Below the pieces are notes generated by a model. The model saw nothing but the letters and a program-made list of their open reading frames with translations, searched no databases and was not told the DNA's origin. From the IMG/VR virus record IMGVR_UViG_3300042885_001472: DNA of 64,000 nucleotides, one strand, 5' to 3'. The translations under genes and the position numbers were made by a program. Source of the DNA: a virus. Lineage: Duplodnaviria > Caudoviricetes. Shown in pieces: positions 5,835-58,567 of the stretch. Position 1 is the stretch's first letter. Each line of letters begins with the position of its first letter.

Positions 5835-6305
5835 ATGGAAAGAAGCGATTTTAGAATCATAGAAAGACTGAACTCATTTGGTAAATCTGAATTTATTATC
5901 CAACATAAAAAACATAAAATGGTTGGAGGTTTCTTCGGACTATTTGGTGGTACTATGCAAGATGTATGGGAAGACTTCTACCTAGAAGTATATGAATGCT
6001 ATGTAAACGACCAACACAGATTTCATAAATATCTATTTATACAAAATTGGAAAGAAAATACAGAAGAAGAAATTGAGTTCTATATAGAACACTTCAATAG
6101 AAAACCAATTGAGTATAGAGGATATAAATTAATTCCGATTGTTTCATACTTTGGTCAAAAATGCCTAACCTATTATGACCCTAAATCATTTTGTAGAAGA
6201 GGTAATTACAACTATGGTTATAGAATATATAGTAGTGAATATGAATCCAAGAAGTATATAGATGATAAATTAGATAAAGGCAGAATATTAAATATTTATG
6301 AATAA
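5835..6305 (+). CDS. hypothetical cassette protein
   Basis: Unit 5764-6398. Confidence 0.75.
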   Translation: MERSDFRIIERLNSFGKSEFIIQHKKHKMVGGFFGLFGGTMQDVWEDFYLEVYECYVNDQHRFHKYLFIQNWKENTEEEIEFYIEHFNRKPIEYRGYKLIPIVSYFGQKCLTYYDPKSFCRRGNYNYGYRIYSSEYESKKYIDDKLDKGRILNIYE

Positions 6306-6394
6306 TATGAAGATTCCAATAGGTGAAAATGAAATAGTTTAGATTTTTTTAACGGCACATACAAAACTATTTCAAAGTAGCTACCGCTTGCAGG

Positions 6395-6471
6395 TAACTA
6401 TTATATATAAACAAGTATAGTCTAAACCCTTTAATAACAATACTTTGAACCAAAAAATTATAAAGATTTGT
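6395..6471. repeat. conserved array-terminal site, copy 1 (candidate attI-like site)
   Basis: 73/77 identical to 16134-16210 by manual alignment. Confidence 0.85.
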
Positions 6472-6542
6472 AAATAAAAGTTTAATTATCTTTTAAAGAT
6501 GAAAATCACTAAATAAAATTAGGAAAATATAAATTAATATGT

Positions 6543-26146: not shown

Positions 26147-27271
26147 ATGGATAAAGAATTAGATGTTTTGACTACTGATAGTGGTCAACAAAGTTTTACG
26201 TATAGAAGTTGTGATAATTACAAAGATGATGGTAAGAGAATCATTAGTTTTTGTAAATCAATGACTAGTCATACGAAAAACAATAAAGAGTATTATAAGA
26301 ATTATATTAATTCTTTATTATCACAATATTGTGTGAAGTTGACGAAAGAGGTTGCTGATAGTTATATACCAGTGTTAGATTTGATTTCTAAACATAAACC
26401 TTACTTAACAAGTAAAGTTGAGGATTTTAAAAAGGAAATATATAATGTTTCTTATGTGACTGATGATTTAGGAAAGTGGCATCCGGTTAATAAATTGAAT
26501 ACTAATTATTTAGATATATCTGAATTGATAACCCATATGGTTAAAAAATTCTTTACGAATAAATCAACCGATACATTTTTTAGTAAAATATTAAATAAAG
26601 ATGTGGCCTATAAATTCTTAAGTGAATATGTTGGTAATGATGAGTTCATCCTTAGTTTAAAAAATAGGTTTGATGGTAATTCACATTTATCAATTGATCA
26701 GTTATTAGGTTTGAGTAGTACTATGTCTGATATTATAAACCATGAGTTTTTTATTAAAGAAGGGTTTGAAAAAATCTTTAGTAAAAGAGTACCACTAACA
26801 CTGGATGAGATAAAAAAATTCATTAGTAATAATGTTAAAAATTCTCACGATGGTGAAATTGTTGAGGATTTTATTGAGAGTGTTCTAAAAGGGTATGGTT
26901 GGAAAATAATACATAAAGGTGGTAATGGTGATTTTATTGATATGAAATTTGGAATTGATTTAATCATTGAAAAGAATAATGTAATCAAGTTTGTCCAGAG
27001 TAAAAAAGTTTGGGACATTAAATTCCAGGAGGTTGATAGAATTAACCAAAATAGTACTGGGGGTTCTTATTTGGTTACCGGTAAAGTAACCGATGTTAGA
27101 GAAGATACAATTGATTTAATCGCCTTGGGGACTATGGATGGTAGATATATTATTAGTGAAAGTCAAAATGAAGTATTTGAGAATCGTTATACCAGTAAAA
27201 AAAGTTTACCATCACCTAAATTTGGTTCTTGTGTTGTAGATCAACCATTTGAAAATATGGTAAAAATATAA
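26147..27271 (+). CDS. hypothetical protein, possible C-terminal PD-(D/E)xK nuclease fold
   Basis: GIDLII...FVQSK. Confidence 0.5.
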   Translation: MDKELDVLTTDSGQQSFTYRSCDNYKDDGKRIISFCKSMTSHTKNNKEYYKNYINSLLSQYCVKLTKEVADSYIPVLDLISKHKPYLTSKVEDFKKEIYNVSYVTDDLGKWHPVNKLNTNYLDISELITHMVKKFFTNKSTDTFFSKILNKDVAYKFLSEYVGNDEFILSLKNRFDGNSHLSIDQLLGLSSTMSDIINHEFFIKEGFEKIFSKRVPLTLDEIKKFISNNVKNSHDGEIVEDFIESVLKGYGWKIIHKGGNGDFIDMKFGIDLIIEKNNVIKFVQSKKVWDIKFQEVDRINQNSTGGSYLVTGKVTDVREDTIDLIALGTMDGRYIISESQNEVFENRYTSKKSLPSPKFGSCVVDQPFENMVKI

Positions 27272-27351
27272 TTAAAAATTATTTATAAAATATTTGTTTT
27301 ATTAAAAATAATTTATTATATTTGCATCAGTCTAATTAAAACATCAAAGAT

Positions 27352-29421
27352 ATGAAAAATATAATTCAATTTAGAAATGGGTTTGTGAATCTACCTAAAA
27401 CATCTGAGAATAATTATACTCTCACGATGACTGTTGTTTCTGAATTGTTACAATTTGGATATATTTTAGATAGTTCGGCTATTGAAGGTTTATCAAAAGC
27501 TTCTAAGGAAGATATTATTTCATTCCATAATGAAGTTATTGATTGGTTAAAAATTATGACTGGTTCTAATAGAAACTACAAACCATTTTGGGGTGGGTTT
27601 CCGGAAGAAGTTATGGAAAAAACTGAATGTGAACTTTGGTTTCATCAAATTACTCATTACTTATTTCAAGGTTCTTATACCCCTTCAGAGTGGACTAAAG
27701 TTAGACCAACCGCGTTTGAACAACCAGAGTATACTAAAATCACTAGTAGTGATGAAGATAAATTTTTAAATATATTCACAGATCTTGTAAGTGTAAATCA
27801 GTCATTAACCCAAAGTGATTTGGAAATTGTTAAATGGTTTGTTAGTTCCGGACAAGAATTAAGATTTCCACAAACAATTCCGTTTAAAGAAAATCTTTGT
27901 ACGCTAGCTGCTATGGGTATTAAAGTACCGGTTAAAACTGTTACTGATGTATTAAGAATAGCTGTAAGTATGTCTAGTGGTGATATATCATTACCTAAAG
28001 TACCAGAAAAGTTAGTTAAATATAACTCTTGGAGTTCACATAAAGTTGAAAACACTCAAAGGGAAAACTTCAAATTTAAAAAGTTTACTCGTAAAGAACG
28101 TAGATTCTTGTTGGAACTTTTAGAACAAACTAATTGTGACGCGTCTGAAGCTGTATTAAAAAGCCAAAGATGGGTTAGATTAGGTGAGATGTTACACCCA
28201 GGTGAATATTCAACTAAATACCCAAAAGCGTACACTATGTTTAATACTATTAGAAACGAAAAAGTTTCTTCTTGGTATGGTAAAGTTGATAAATCTTTTA
28301 AAGAGTCATTTGATTCTGGTATAAATAAATTATCAGAAAGACCAGGTGAATTTGTTAGGAAATTAGATTGGTTAATTAGAACTAATGGTAATCAATCATC
28401 TAAAATTATTAATACTTTAAAGAATGTTTCTATGAAAGTATCTAATAAAGTTTTATTTGAAACATATGGTCACTTCTCAAAAAGAGTTGATGTTAAACAA
28501 AACAGAAATATATCTTTAAAAGGTGGCCGTAAAAGAATTACATTACCGGAGTTACAACCATTAAGTCATTACGCTGTTAATAGTGTTCAAAATACGATTA
28601 TTTCATCACTTAAAGATAAATTTTCAACTTTAGAACCTATGGGTAAAGTTTGGATTGATGAGGAACTTTCTAAGATACCTTTACCTTCTAATATGAGATC
28701 TTTAAACCCATCATTAAAACCTAGAGTTAGAGGTATTAGAACACCGATGGGTAATCAAAACTCTAAAGTGATTAGATCATTTGTTCATTGGTTTGATGAA
28801 AATGGTAATAAGGATATTGACTTAAGTGCGACATTCATTGGTATGGGTAAACATAAAATTATTTCTTGGGATAATTCACAAAATGAAGAAGAAGGATATT
28901 TCTCTGGGGACATTAGAAATAGACAAGGGGCTTGTGCTGAGTATATTGATATTAATGTAAAACAATCTTTAAAAAATGGTTTTAAATATGTTGTACTTGA
29001 CGTTAGAAACTTTAATGGTGGATCATTAGCCGATGTTACTGATTGTGTATTTGGGTGGATGGAAAGAGAGTTTCCGGTAGCTAATGAGATATTTGTACCA
29101 GCGACTTTGTCTAACACCATTAGATTAACGAATTCGGCTACTAATACTATTGTGGCGGTAATTGATTTAGAAACACAAGAATACATATTCTTAGACATTG
29201 ATCAGGATGGTATACCGGTGACTAGTTTTAATTATGAGGAGATACTTGAATCAATTAAAGAATACACTGAAAAATGTAAATTCTCTGTATACGATTTATT
29301 AATGTTACATATTCAAAGTAGAGGACAATTAGTAACTAATAAAGAAGATTCAGATAAAATGTTTACTTTTGATGAATTTAGTAGTAATTATATAGAAACT
29401 TTAAAATATATGGGAATTTAA
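27352..29421 (+). CDS. large helical protein with C-terminal TerD-like domain
   Basis: DIDLSATF, SGDIR, GACAEYIDI in the C-terminal third. Confidence 0.7.
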   Translation: MKNIIQFRNGFVNLPKTSENNYTLTMTVVSELLQFGYILDSSAIEGLSKASKEDIISFHNEVIDWLKIMTGSNRNYKPFWGGFPEEVMEKTECELWFHQITHYLFQGSYTPSEWTKVRPTAFEQPEYTKITSSDEDKFLNIFTDLVSVNQSLTQSDLEIVKWFVSSGQELRFPQTIPFKENLCTLAAMGIKVPVKTVTDVLRIAVSMSSGDISLPKVPEKLVKYNSWSSHKVENTQRENFKFKKFTRKERRFLLELLEQTNCDASEAVLKSQRWVRLGEMLHPGEYSTKYPKAYTMFNTIRNEKVSSWYGKVDKSFKESFDSGINKLSERPGEFVRKLDWLIRTNGNQSSKIINTLKNVSMKVSNKVLFETYGHFSKRVDVKQNRNISLKGGRKRITLPELQPLSHYAVNSVQNTIISSLKDKFSTLEPMGKVWIDEELSKIPLPSNMRSLNPSLKPRVRGIRTPMGNQNSKVIRSFVHWFDENGNKDIDLSATFIGMGKHKIISWDNSQNEEEGYFSGDIRNRQGACAEYIDINVKQSLKNGFKYVVLDVRNFNGGSLADVTDCVFGWMEREFPVANEIFVPATLSNTIRLTNSATNTIVAVIDLETQEYIFLDIDQDGIPVTSFNYEEILESIKEYTEKCKFSVYDLLMLHIQSRGQLVTNKEDSDKMFTFDEFSSNYIETLKYMGI

Positions 29422-29426
29422 AATCT

Positions 29427-29595
29427 TTTATCGGCTATTTGTTGAGTTACTTCTAAACTATGTATAAAGCTCACTCACATACTTTCCGATAAATTCATTC
29501 AATGTGGATCAATGGCTACAATCCTCCAGTTACTTCTAAACTTCAAAAAGAAAGAAGAGTCCAAAAAAACGGATACTGGTACACTTTCCACCACA
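29427..29595 (+). ncRNA. two tandem copies of an unknown structured RNA motif
   Basis: Identical AGTTACTTCTAAACT at 29445 and 29528 and ACTTTCC at 29481 and 29583, each inside nested stems. Confidence 0.6.
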
Positions 29596-29665
29596 AAGAA
29601 TAAACGTCAATATGACTGACGTAAGGACTATAGGATAATGTCATATATTATCCCTTCGAAAAAAT

Positions 29666-29694
29666 AAAAAACCTCCTTAATGGGGGTTTTTTTA
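29666..29694 (+). terminator. rho-independent terminator
   Basis: AAAAACCTCC-ttaat-GGGGGTTTTTTT. Confidence 0.7.
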
Positions 29695-29736
29695 TTGACT
29701 CATTAATTTTTTTTGTTTAGATTTAATAAAAAAGTT

Positions 29737-30801
29737 ATGAAAGTTCCAGACAAAGTTATTAACAATTATTTAGAAGATACGACATCTAAATTTAGTGAGT
29801 ATGTATTTAAAAATATTTTAAATAATTCTTATGATGAAAAATTAGTTGAAGATTCTACTTTAGAATTTTATACTAAAAAAAATGGTGGTATTAAACCAAA
29901 CATTAAATGGGTGGATAATCCATTGGTCATTAGAGATATGTATATAGGTGAGAGTGTTAATCTATACTCATCTTATTTTAATGTAAATTGGGTTTATTTT
30001 TATTCATCATTCATTGATTATTTAATTGAAAATAATATTGATACTAAAACAGAATATTTTGATTTAGATGAAGAACTATATTTAGATTCAAAATTAGTTT
30101 TTAATATTTTATCTAATACATTTGGTGTTTGTGAAATCCCCGGAGATGATTTAAAATATAAAGAAATTGTATTAATTAAAAAACCCAATTTAGTTTTAAC
30201 CCAAGATCATAAATTACATTCAATTAAGGGACCAGCTTTTAGTTACGATGACAATAGATTAAGATTCTATTTTATTGAAGGGTTAAAATTTGATGAAGAA
30301 ACTTGGGTTAGAATTATGAAAACTTCATTAAGTAATCCTAGTAGTATGGTTAATGATATTTTAAAAGAAAGTGAAATATTAGAACTTAAAAATTATATTA
30401 CTAAGATTGAAACCACAATTGGTGTACAAGAAGAACTATCTATTAAAAATATTTTATTGATTGAGAATATTGAAGAGAAATCTAAAATCATTAAATATAT
30501 TGGTTATAATATGGTGACAGATGTGGCTAACTTAATAACACAACAATCAATTACAACCCATAAGGGTGACATTGTAAATTATCAGTTATTTGAAATTAAT
30601 CTTGGTTTAGAAATAGATAATATACCCTCAAGATTTGTTAAAGTTGTTTGTTGGAGTACCGGAAAAGAATATGTATTACAAGTAGATCCTAGAGATAAAC
30701 AATGTGAAACACCTATTGGAGCTATAGCTTGGACATGTGTTAAACCAGATGGTAGTAATTGTACTGAGGAAGAATATCTTCAATTAGAATTTCAAACTTA
30801 A
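29737..30801 (+). CDS. DUF6745-like phage protein
   Basis: LHSIKGPA, C-terminal FVKVVCWSTGKEYVLQV..AIAWT. Confidence 0.55.
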   Translation: MKVPDKVINNYLEDTTSKFSEYVFKNILNNSYDEKLVEDSTLEFYTKKNGGIKPNIKWVDNPLVIRDMYIGESVNLYSSYFNVNWVYFYSSFIDYLIENNIDTKTEYFDLDEELYLDSKLVFNILSNTFGVCEIPGDDLKYKEIVLIKKPNLVLTQDHKLHSIKGPAFSYDDNRLRFYFIEGLKFDEETWVRIMKTSLSNPSSMVNDILKESEILELKNYITKIETTIGVQEELSIKNILLIENIEEKSKIIKYIGYNMVTDVANLITQQSITTHKGDIVNYQLFEINLGLEIDNIPSRFVKVVCWSTGKEYVLQVDPRDKQCETPIGAIAWTCVKPDGSNCTEEEYLQLEFQT

Positions 30802-54450: not shown

Positions 54451-55764
54451 TTATTTTTTTAGGTTAGATTCTTTTAAAATAGTATGTAATATTTTTTTAA
54501 AACTTTCAACTTGTCTATCTAAAGGTAAAGAATTTAACCATGTACCTAAATCAGTAGCCTTAATGGTTCTTTTCATAGTTTCATCACCCCATTTAGATGG
54601 TTGAGTACCTTTGGGATATTGAACTATAATCTCAAGTTCATTTTTTTCTGGTGATATTTTGTTAATAACTATTTCAATACCAGACTCAGAAGTTTTTCTA
54701 AAAGCGTCACCCTCTTTTTTAAAACCTAAACGATTAATGATTTCCCAAATCTCTTTAGTGTTTTCAAGTTTAATTTCCCCATCTTCAATTCCATCAATTA
54801 AATCATCAATATGTTTTTCAATTTGTCTGTAAGTATCAGCCATCTCTTCTTTATCCGGATAACTTTCATACCAAGCACCTTCAAGACTTATATGGTCACC
54901 ATTTATTTCAAGATCTTTTAAATCTGATAGTGTAGTAACCATTGGATTAGTAATAACCATTTTTAATAAATCTTTCCATGGGATAAAAATATCAGCACTA
55001 CCTTTACCTTGAAACTTAACACCTTTTTCATATTCATCAGTCACACCTTTACTCCTAGATCTACCAAGAGCGTAACCATAATCACTTAAGTAATCAGTAA
55101 AAATTCTATCAGCTTGTTTTGGAAAGTTTAATTCTAAAAAATCACTAAACTCACCTTCATCAAGACCATCAGTTTTAATACGAGTTGAAATATTAAGATC
55201 GCCAACCATATCAGCTAGAATTGATATTTTTTCTCTTACATCTTCAGGAAGACCTCTCTCCATATATTTAAGTTCATCATCGTCAACTTCTTCACTATAA
55301 CCATAATGACTATTGGCCATATTGTAAAACCATGTATCTTCTTCAGATAACCCACTAAAATATTTTCTCCAATCTTCAGAATCCATATGTAATTTAATAC
55401 CTTTTGTATCAAACTCAACAAAATTGTTTCTATTATCATAAAAAAATTCACCAGATATTTCTCGTGAATTTAAAATGTCATCCATTTCTCTTTCACTCTC
55501 ATAATCTTTTTTAATGATTTTTCTAATTAGATTGGCCAATTTACCAATACCTCTATCAACTTTTTCAGTTAACTCATATTGACCATCTTCCCTATAATTA
55601 TTTAAAAATAATCTATAACTTTTAACTAATTCATCCTCCACATCATCAAAACCATAATCTATTAATTTACCATTAAAAGTATTATAACTGGGAACTGTTT
55701 TGAACAGTCTATTAAATAACTTAAGTAATTTAATCTCTTTTTCTGTGAATTTTTTTGAAGCCAT
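54451..55764 (-). CDS. hypothetical acidic protein
   Basis: 437-aa ORF. Confidence 0.75.
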   Translation of the reverse strand: MASKKFTEKEIKLLKLFNRLFKTVPSYNTFNGKLIDYGFDDVEDELVKSYRLFLNNYREDGQYELTEKVDRGIGKLANLIRKIIKKDYESEREMDDILNSREISGEFFYDNRNNFVEFDTKGIKLHMDSEDWRKYFSGLSEEDTWFYNMANSHYGYSEEVDDDELKYMERGLPEDVREKISILADMVGDLNISTRIKTDGLDEGEFSDFLELNFPKQADRIFTDYLSDYGYALGRSRSKGVTDEYEKGVKFQGKGSADIFIPWKDLLKMVITNPMVTTLSDLKDLEINGDHISLEGAWYESYPDKEEMADTYRQIEKHIDDLIDGIEDGEIKLENTKEIWEIINRLGFKKEGDAFRKTSESGIEIVINKISPEKNELEIIVQYPKGTQPSKWGDETMKRTIKATDLGTWLNSLPLDRQVESFKKILHTILKESNLKK

Positions 55765-56843: not shown

Positions 56844-56868
56844 GTTATTTGATTTTTTAAATGATAAG

Positions 56869-56943
56869 TGATCCCGACAGGATTCCAACCTGTAACCCTT
56901 GTCTTAGAAGGACAATGCTCTGATGCGGTTGAGCTACGGGACC
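56869..56943 (-). tRNA. tRNA-Arg(TCT) with non-canonical elbow
   Basis: GGTCCCG/CGGGATC acceptor, GCTC/GAGC D stem, TTGTC-CTTCTAA-GACAA anticodon arm, T loop TTGGAAT. Confidence 0.85.
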
Positions 56944-57360
56944 AATATTTATGTATGTTGAGTACAAATGTAATGATTATTTTTAATAAAACAAATTTAT
57001 TTTTTAAAAAACAAGTAGTAGAAACTTAGAACCCCACCTTTTGGGGGTTACAGAGAACAGATATTTCTACCCCTAAGTTAATTTTATGTCTTGAAAACTA
57101 CTACTTGTTATTAAATCTACTTACAACTACCTCTACCATATTTCTATGAGTCACTGTCCTGATTGTAAGTTGTAGTCTTTAGAACTACTAGATTTAATGT
57201 GTTTACCTGTCACTCCAAGTGTGTGAATAATCTGTTATTACCATAATAGGGCCAGTCATTATCTATCCACAAACAACTCCCTCTTGGTGTGGGATATACA
57301 TCTTATATCTATCACTAGACAAATTCCACTGTATTTGTTTGCTTTTAGCGGGTAAATATT

Positions 57361-57503
57361 TGTGAGTACAAGTTATCTCCTCTTACTATGGGATACAAAT
57401 TATAGTGCTTGCGAGACCTTGTATCCTCTTACTCGGTAGTATAGTCAATCAGAGACCCCAGCTAGGATGTTTAGAGTCCAGCGGTGGCTTTACCTTGTAC
57501 TCA
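57361..57503 (-). ncRNA. unknown structured RNA, copy 1
   Basis: Three blocks identical to 58318-58483; closing stem TGAGTACAAG/CTTGTACTCA. Confidence 0.7.
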
Positions 57504-57882: not shown

Positions 57883-58206
57883 TTATACAGACCAAGACCT
57901 AAACCCAGACCCAGACCAAGACTCAGACCAAGACCTAGACCAAGACCCAGACTCAGACCAAGACATAGACTCAGACCAAGACATAGATCCAGACCAAGAC
58001 CTAGACCTAGACCCAGACCTAGACCAAGACACAGAACAAGACCAAGACCAAGACCTAGACTCAGACCAAGACCTAGACCCAGACCAAGACCAAGACCTAG
58101 ACCCATACCCAGACCTAGACCAAGACTCAGACCAAGACCTAGACCAAGACCCAGACCTAGACCAAGACTCAGACCTAGATCTTTTTTGTTTTTTTCCTCT
58201 TATCAT
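57883..58206 (-). CDS. Ser-X dipeptide repeat protein (SR/SW/SG/SE)
   Basis: ATG after an A-rich leader; reads a 6-bp repeat. Confidence 0.55.
   Translation of the reverse strand: MIRGKKQKRSRSESWSRSGSWSRSWSESWSRSGYGSRSWSWSGSRSWSESRSWSWSCSVSWSRSGSRSRSWSGSMSWSESMSWSESGSWSRSWSESWSGSGFRSWSV
57888..58180. repeat. degenerate hexamer tandem repeat (AGACCN)n
   Basis: About 49 units. Confidence 0.95.
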
Positions 58207-58317: not shown

Positions 58318-58483
58318 GTGAGTACAAGTTATCTCCTCTTACTATTTAACAGTAGGTGGCTTCCTACATCTATTAACTCAGTTTTATTTCTTTGTGTTAA
58401 TAGTCAATCAGAGACCCCAGCTAGAGTTTATATAATTAAATAATCACCTAATTACACTCAGCGGTGGCTTTACCTTGTACTCA
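58318..58483 (-). ncRNA. unknown structured RNA, copy 2
   Basis: Same three conserved blocks as copy 1, with different inserts. Confidence 0.7.
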
Positions 58484-58567
58484 GTATTTTTAATTTCAAA
58501 GAACTAATTTTTTATAACATTAATTGTTTAACAAAAGTAAGTATTTTTTTTAAATATAACAAGTGTT

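Follow-up and report, generated by a model that had tools for sequence, protein, structure and literature searches.

The window analysed here, a 64,000-nucleotide (64-kb) stretch of DNA of a large phage from lake water (Caudoviricetes record IMGVR_UViG_3300042885_001472), carries on its + strand a gene for a 689-residue protein (27352–29421) that is directly followed by two tandem RNA units (unit 1, 29427–29493, and unit 2, 29503–29595). The units belong to a new structured RNA family, absent from Rfam, of which at least 160 members were found here, in arrays that always adjoin the gene or its homologues. We consider it reasonably probable, by analogy, that the protein and its RNAs form a ribonucleoprotein module, a functional analogue of Ro60 and its Y RNAs.

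The non-coding stretch that holds the units, 290 nt long, starts six bases past the stop codon of the gene; folded as the 281-nt intergenic stretch, it does better than all of 200 shuffled versions (z −3.5). Unit 1 (fold z −2.8) has the canonical scaffold, in which an outer stem (29427–29434 paired with 29486–29493) leads into a GGCUAU box, an 8-bp inner stem with one bulged U (29440–29447 paired with 29473–29479), a loop starting UUACUUCUA and an ACUUUCC box. The loop start of unit 1 reads UUACUUCUAAACU, and the same loop box is present in unit 2, where the outer stem is interrupted (GUGG 29504–29507 with CCAC 29591–29594, UGG 29513–29515 with CCA 29588–29590), the inner stem has five pairs (CCAGU with ACUGG), the larger loop contains two small hairpins and the unit ends CCACCAC. 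Common to both are the boxes GGCUAU, UUACUUCUA and UUUCC, and the 15-mer AGTTACTTCTAAACT occurs in exactly two copies in the 64 kb, both in these units. The first-pass annotation, made from the letters of the window, had described two units of one architecture, and every element it listed is present where it placed it; it overlooked the third common box, GGCUA(U/C), directly 3' of the outer stem in both.

Two further hairpins follow on the + strand, at 29604–29622 and 29633–29653. Both sides of the first stem are changed, with pairing kept, in a relative of 70% protein identity (locus L079), in which the hairpin at the place of the second differs in sequence. An intrinsic terminator at 29666–29696 (stem 29673–29686, then a U run; fold z −3.1) ends the gene and RNA transcription unit. 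Since the terminator scan gave no + strand terminator-like site between the stop codon and 29666, gene and RNAs are most simply one transcription unit.

A new RNA family linked to one gene

A covariance model, R1, of 71 positions and 14 pairs was built from 42 short, non-redundant units aligned with a MAFFT-based procedure (alignment A2). The scaffold it describes has an outer stem ending GG, the sequence CUAU, an inner stem of 8–9 pairs that usually has one bulged base in its 5' strand, a loop start UUACUUCU(A), a variable loop, an inner-stem 3' strand from ACU, two variable bases with UUU, and finally CC and the outer stem. R1 scores 63.4 bits (E 3.5e-13) on unit 1 and 22.2 bits (E 0.005) on unit 2 and has no other match in the window below E 1; a match at 54519–54564 on the minus strand (E 1.5), within coding sequence and without the loop box, was set aside as chance. 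Rfam has no family that matches the units at its gathering score in the whole window, and in a search of 29300–29800 at E ≤ 10 only terminator-like chance matches appeared near them. Nor did a blastn comparison of 27000–30000 with phage GenBank records give any match.

The family's structure is supported by covariation. RNAalifold applied to the 42 units recovers both stems, with compensatory double changes at 10 of the 12 pairs, and columns 4/90 of this alignment show four pair types and no broken pair. Across 110 units in alignment A3, which was fitted to the model and so somewhat inflates the paired percentages, 89% of cells are paired compared with 36–48% when the 3' partners are slid by 1–3 columns, and the covariation score is 0.785 against about 0.1 for slid partners. 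The many compensatory changes across the family bear out the earlier proposal that selection acts on RNA structure here. G-U pairs are common (for instance 17 at columns 28/171 among the 110 units), and their frequency shows that the functional form is RNA of the gene's own sense; a DNA cruciform would not fit.

The 689-residue protein has at least 843 metagenomic homologues. No homologue was found by a single-protein scan of viral contigs; an alignment-based scan gave 52 viral loci and 24 loci from bacterial genome bins, and tandem boxes are seen in the flanks of homologues, from 1 to 8 units per locus. R1 has 118 matches in 42 viral loci (313 kb), all 118 on the strand of the gene, and 41 matches in the 24 independent genome loci (174 kb), again all 41 on the gene's strand. 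A unit at E < 1e-3 is present in 35 of the 42 viral and 19 of the 24 genome loci, to which L065 is added at E about 0.01, and some other loci hold degenerate or embedded units recognised by eye (L025, L051). The association extends down to about 28% protein identity and over units of about 25% to 64% G+C. When R1 was run on four whole phage records (203–372 kb, three of them complete at 310–372 kb) and one 3.2-Mb bacterial bin, every match at E ≤ 0.01 adjoined the gene. Co-occurrence of units and homologues, by which the first-pass annotation had suggested its idea be judged, is what the covariance model finds: the motif stands beside the gene and on its strand in most loci, and nowhere else in the five whole records. 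Arrays are always adjacent to the gene, upstream in some clades and downstream in others, so that inherited gene order alone hardly explains the linkage.

In close relatives (93%, 70% and 65% protein identity) the units are kept directly after the stop codon; unit 2 is retained in both L078 and L079. The latter locus shows substitutions of both pairing partners within the unit 1 inner stem as well as in the hairpin corresponding to 29604–29622, and its unit 2 has a 20-nt insertion in the 5' strand. The surroundings of arrays vary. L016 and L026 retain their arrays even with an open reading frame (ORF) inserted ahead of them, on the side of the gene; just past the array of L007, at 5856–6491, lies an ORF resembling GIY-YIG/NUMOD3 homing endonucleases (Pfam). 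In L002 (5911–7567) and about 30 related loci of one phage clade the array is followed by a conserved 148-residue protein of unknown family and a calcineurin-like (Metallophos) phosphoesterase, which could be an RNA end-healing enzyme; both genes are confined to that clade and are missing from the window.

RNA libraries contain the array. Metatranscriptome contigs from three studies cover it at 97–99% identity, X17 over 29452–29593, X19 over 29437–29626 and X16 over 29536–29692. The X17 piece comes from a lake metatranscriptome and is bordered on both sides by what we take to be Illumina adapter, a hint, from a single observation, that it is one insert running from the loop box of unit 1 to the ...CCACCA of unit 2. 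Its start at 29452 corresponds to anticodon position 34 if the CUUCUAA sequence of that box is read as an anticodon loop, and its ends may be processing sites. That X17 and X19 leave most of the ORF uncovered was not taken as a sign that small RNAs exceed the messenger RNA, these being contigs only.

The protein and the RNA-repair context in relatives

The AlphaFold model of the 689-residue protein (predicted local distance difference test score, pLDDT, 77) has a helical part (about residues 1–425), a beta-sandwich (about 430–620) and a short helical tail. Foldseek matches the beta-sandwich to the TerD structures 3ibz, 2qng, 2qz7 and 2kxt (probability 1.0, E about 6e-4, template modelling (TM) score by target 0.54–0.62). 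Pfam finds nothing in the protein at E ≤ 0.1, including TerD (PF02342), TROVE (PF05731) and Prok-RING_4, and the best TerD matches among relatives reach 22.5 bits against a cut-off of 25.3 in one comparison and E 0.012 in another. The description of a TerD-domain protein given in the first-pass annotation holds at the level of fold, judged against solved structures, and fails at the level of Pfam. The window protein falls in PHROG 33734, a family of unknown function, and has a partial match (residues 304–619, 209 bits against a 600-bit cut-off) to NCBIfam NF041916, the MXAN_6230/SCO0854 RING family; its helical part is common to bacterial RING-TerD proteins (Atlas TM 0.74). A search of the PDB by sequence with the family profile gave no match. 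In 28 members with 26–61% identity, 12 arginines and the acidic positions of the TerD motif are among the residues conserved without or almost without exception.

The helical part was compared with the TROVE domain of Ro60 in several ways. Pfam TROVE matched none of 28 diverse members at E ≤ 10, and hhalign of the family profile with a genuine TROVE protein (an ORF of L077, Pfam TROVE 4e-10) gave a probability of 0.3%. The Foldseek comparison with Ro60 that had been proposed at the outset was negative, nothing falling below E 0.06 with the N-terminal model. With regard to the ring of HEAT-like repeats in Ro60, VIA-align paired the model with the Ro60 of phage phiLo (9l5y_B; Z 6.8, root mean square deviation (rmsd) 5.0, 225 residues) as well as with Xenopus Ro (1yvp_A; Z 6.0, 199 residues), values within the noise range of helical repeats, these two Ro60 structures being the longest alignments with rmsd near 5 in its list. 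These results do not allow the protein to be classed with Ro60; the resemblance is one of design.

In L066, a Verrucomicrobiales contig (2650–7700), a divergent RtcR gene comes first. It is followed by a sigma-54-type promoter, recognised by eye as TGGCAC and GTGCA five bases apart, a composite RNA unit, a simple unit (39 bits), the homologue of the window gene, RtcB and RtcA. In the fold of the composite unit (z −3.5) the loop of the scaffold contains three hairpins, and these hairpins match positions 23–85 of the 114 in Rfam YrlA (41.9 bits, E 3e-8; gathering score 69), that is, the tRNA-like module of YrlA, the Ro-binding stem being unmatched. No TROVE gene was matched in the L066 genome, which is a bin. 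Among 401 genomes sampled from its phylum, Verrucomicrobiota, the gene was present in three: a second, L087, has RtcR, a sigma-54-type promoter, a unit and then the homologue, and L086 has a weak unit directly upstream of a RING-bearing form. In phage L022 an RtcB homologue lies about 1 kb beyond the array. RtcR switches on the rsr-yrlBA-rtcBA operon in response to broken tRNAs (PMC7790460), and YrlA genes are tRNA mimics that lie at most 4 kb from Ro60 on the same strand (PMC4201824). L066 reproduces the arrangement of that operon with another protein and another RNA handle. The gene order and YrlA-like payload of L066 independently support the analogy with Ro60 and Y RNA first drawn from the window; the part of that analogy that would have been homology, a TROVE domain, is found by neither Pfam nor hhalign.

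Payloads, interrupted tRNA genes and competing readings

The variable loops of the family, here termed payloads, follow unit type. Arrays hold up to 7–8 different units with conserved, type-specific payloads, and in orthologous unit types the loop sequences are kept while the stems covary. Some relatives' loops contain T-arm-like hairpins or tRNA-like sequence, and other payloads are whole tRNA bodies. The window is simple, with two free units whose payloads are simple loops and small hairpins, and without an interrupted tRNA gene. In related arrays, tRNA genes at the array end carry a circularly permuted scaffold in or beside the anticodon arm (L007:5696–5818, L002, L006, L018–L021, L024–L027, L039 and L055); in these genes a loop caps the outer stem, and the anticodon arm continues from the inner stem. 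The L007 gene scores 41 bits with Rfam tRNA. Once the insert is taken out in silico, ARAGORN reads the L007 and L025 types as canonical tRNA-Asn(GUU) and tRNA-Arg(UCU), and in type II interrupted tRNAs the restored anticodon varies with the splice points chosen. Minimum free energy folding of the permuted scaffolds gives the expected fold in 4 of 11, with competing folds in the rest. Judged from sequence, the permuted scaffold looks like a non-group-I tRNA intron in phages.

These genes invite a bolder proposal, to which we allow a small chance: scaffold RNA and protein would be the core of a tRNA-splicing or tRNA-mending machine in bacteria and phages, the interrupted tRNA genes would contain protein-dependent non-group-I introns whose exons an RtcB-type ligase joins, and the free units, whether excised or independent copies of the element, would load the protein. 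Unlikely too is an explanation that makes the scaffold itself an RNA-processing element, a self-cleaving ribozyme or protein-aided intron-like element, with the arrays as processing cassettes and the interrupted tRNA genes as its real substrates. The circular permutation inside relatives' tRNA genes would fit this, as would the two tRNAs recovered by insert removal, the presence next to units in L066 and L022 of RtcB, a ligase for 2',3'-cyclic phosphate and 5'-OH ends, and the one RNA-library fragment that begins inside the conserved loop box at 29452. But that fragment end is a single contig observation, the units match no known ribozyme family in Rfam, their conserved nucleotides are pyrimidine-rich loops in which no catalytic core is recognised, and the free-standing units of the window interrupt nothing.

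Less likely again, the units might be cis-acting 3' or 5' untranslated elements of the gene's own messenger RNA, by which the protein or some other factor would control its stability or translation, and not trans-acting partners. They are always co-oriented with the gene and directly adjacent in its leader or trailer, and in the window no promoter or terminator separates them from it. Autoregulation would need neither arrays of up to 7–8 different units with conserved type-specific payloads nor tRNA-like modules and whole tRNA bodies as payloads, and the arrays of L016 and L026 persist despite the ORF inserted between them and the gene.

We give little credence to the idea that the units work on their own as decoys imitating a tRNA anticodon loop, directed at host anticodon nucleases or tRNA-modifying enzymes and functionally unrelated to the protein. 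The window does encode a tRNA-Arg(UCU) (56868–56943, minus strand) whose anticodon loop, CUUCUAA, is identical to seven bases within the loop box of both units, and at the equivalent of base 37 a purine stands in 97 of the 109 units scored in the 110-unit alignment. The box, however, lacks the setting of an anticodon, a 7-nt loop closed by a 5-bp stem, the 'anticodon' differs in distant units (UCA, ACA, CCA), and the exclusive linkage to one gene across phyla and the bacterial RtcR operons would be left unexplained. Finally, it is very unlikely that the repeats act as DNA (promoters, recombination or replication sites), as short conserved boxes in tandem in intergenic DNA might suggest, given stems that covary with frequent G-U pairs, which are A-C mismatches on the other strand, about 160 copies all in the gene's orientation, and payloads that are tRNA-like RNA folds.

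Elsewhere in the window, Pfam typing of ten neighbouring ORFs found only NUDIX, exonuclease and DnaJ, none of them linked to the module. On the minus strand, at about 57360–57500 and 58320–58485, two copies of a roughly 150-nt element with complementary ends, GAGTACAAG ... CTTGTACTC, flank a tRNA-like gene; Rfam gives nothing at gathering score at either, and they may be another structured RNA. Between them, at about 57900–58200, is a long run of imperfect short repeats of GGTCT type, also on the minus strand.

The proposed module and known systems

The ribonucleoprotein module remains the reading we prefer, and on it one transcription unit would yield the protein and its own small scaffold RNAs, which would then assemble. 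The protein would recognise a constant RNA handle made up of the GG/CC-closed internal loop CUAU / RMUUU, the inner stem and the UUACUUCU(A) loop start. The variable terminal loop would be the payload, which in relatives consists of T-arm hairpins, tRNA-like modules or whole tRNA bodies. By analogy with Ro60 and its Y RNAs, the particle would act on damaged or misfolded tRNA or other RNA, and it is probably a particle for handling such RNA that has not been described before. In bacteria it could belong to an RtcR-controlled RNA-repair response; in phages it would probably sustain the pool of tRNA and other RNA during infection, for example against host anticodon nucleases. We infer binding and function from linkage, context and payload, and likewise the division into handle and payload and the biological role.

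Several points weigh against this reading. The protein has no recognised RNA-binding domain, the similarity of its helical part to Ro60 is not significant, and TerD domains are Ca2+-binding modules of stress and phage-resistance operons. RtcR context is seen in only two of the three Verrucomicrobiota genomes with the gene and not in L067 or L068, the other genome loci examined; the window phage has no RtcB or RtcA beside the module, and 27 kb separate the module from the phage's tRNA genes. The RNA-library evidence consists of contigs only, which DNA carry-over could explain and which make a ranking of expression impossible. As to structure, the RNAalifold result on the MAFFT-aligned 42 units is cleaner than the percentages from the model-fitted 110.

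In the literature we found no description of the RNA or of its pairing with this protein; one paper that contains both TerD and RtcB treats them in unrelated sections and does not concern this system. If the proposal is correct, it offers a testable function for a large uncharacterised protein family, including the SCO0854/MXAN_6230 RING proteins, and for the TerD domain outside ter operons. It also suggests a way, beyond the tRNA genes they carry, in which phages shield translation from host tRNA-directed defences.

Classic TerD proteins are single-domain proteins of about 190 residues from operons with TerB, TerC, TerY and TelA, and we know of no RNA partner for them. Like TerD of these ter (tellurite/phage resistance) operons (PF02342; 3ibz, 2kxt), the window protein has a C-terminal beta-sandwich of TerD fold in which the acidic SGD...E..D motif is kept; unlike in ter operons, TerB, TerC, TerY and TelA are not among the ten window ORFs typed with Pfam. 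With the MXAN_6230/SCO0854 RING proteins (NF041916; Pfam Prok-RING_4) it shares a helical body joined to a TerD-like domain, and the RING-bearing L086 has its weak unit upstream, whereas the window protein is without a RING finger and scores 209 against 600 bits; as far as we found, the literature on that family describes no function or RNA partner. Archaeal and eukaryal tRNA introns, whose exons RtcB joins, resemble what interrupts the tRNA genes of relatives: a short structured insert at or close to the anticodon arm, a canonical tRNA once the insert is taken out and, in some loci, RtcB nearby. The interrupted genes differ in that no bulge-helix-bulge is recognised and no splicing endonuclease was found, and their splicing is a possibility read from sequence.

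The closest parallel is Ro60 (Rsr) with Y RNA (YrlA/YrlB), to our knowledge the only described particle of such design in bacteria and phages. The differences are clear. A TerD fold takes the place of the C-terminal von Willebrand A (vWA) domain, with its metal ion-dependent adhesion site (MIDAS), there is no detectable TROVE domain, and arrays hold up to 8 units. The handles of the RNAs are not related: neither Y_RNA (RF00019) nor YrlA (RF02553) matches 29300–29800 at E ≤ 10 or the whole window at gathering score. Close to their 5' end, Y RNA and YrlA bind Ro60 through a conserved motif, GNCGAAN0-1G (PMC4201824); GNCGAA is absent from 29420–29700, where the sole CGAA is preceded by TT. The likenesses lie in organisation. 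Each system pairs the gene for a large protein, partly helical and with a C-terminal domain that binds metal, with one or more small structured RNAs encoded beside it on the same strand, and the RNA combines a protein handle, whose binding would be the corresponding step here, with a module able to mimic tRNA. In some bacteria both follow RtcR and a sigma-54-type promoter and share the locus with RtcB and RtcA, and both occur in phages. If our reading holds, there would be a widespread second version of the Ro60/Y-type particle, with a different protein and RNA handle and the same tRNA-like payload and place in RtcR/RtcB/RtcA operons, which would indicate convergent or modular evolution of RNA-surveillance particles.

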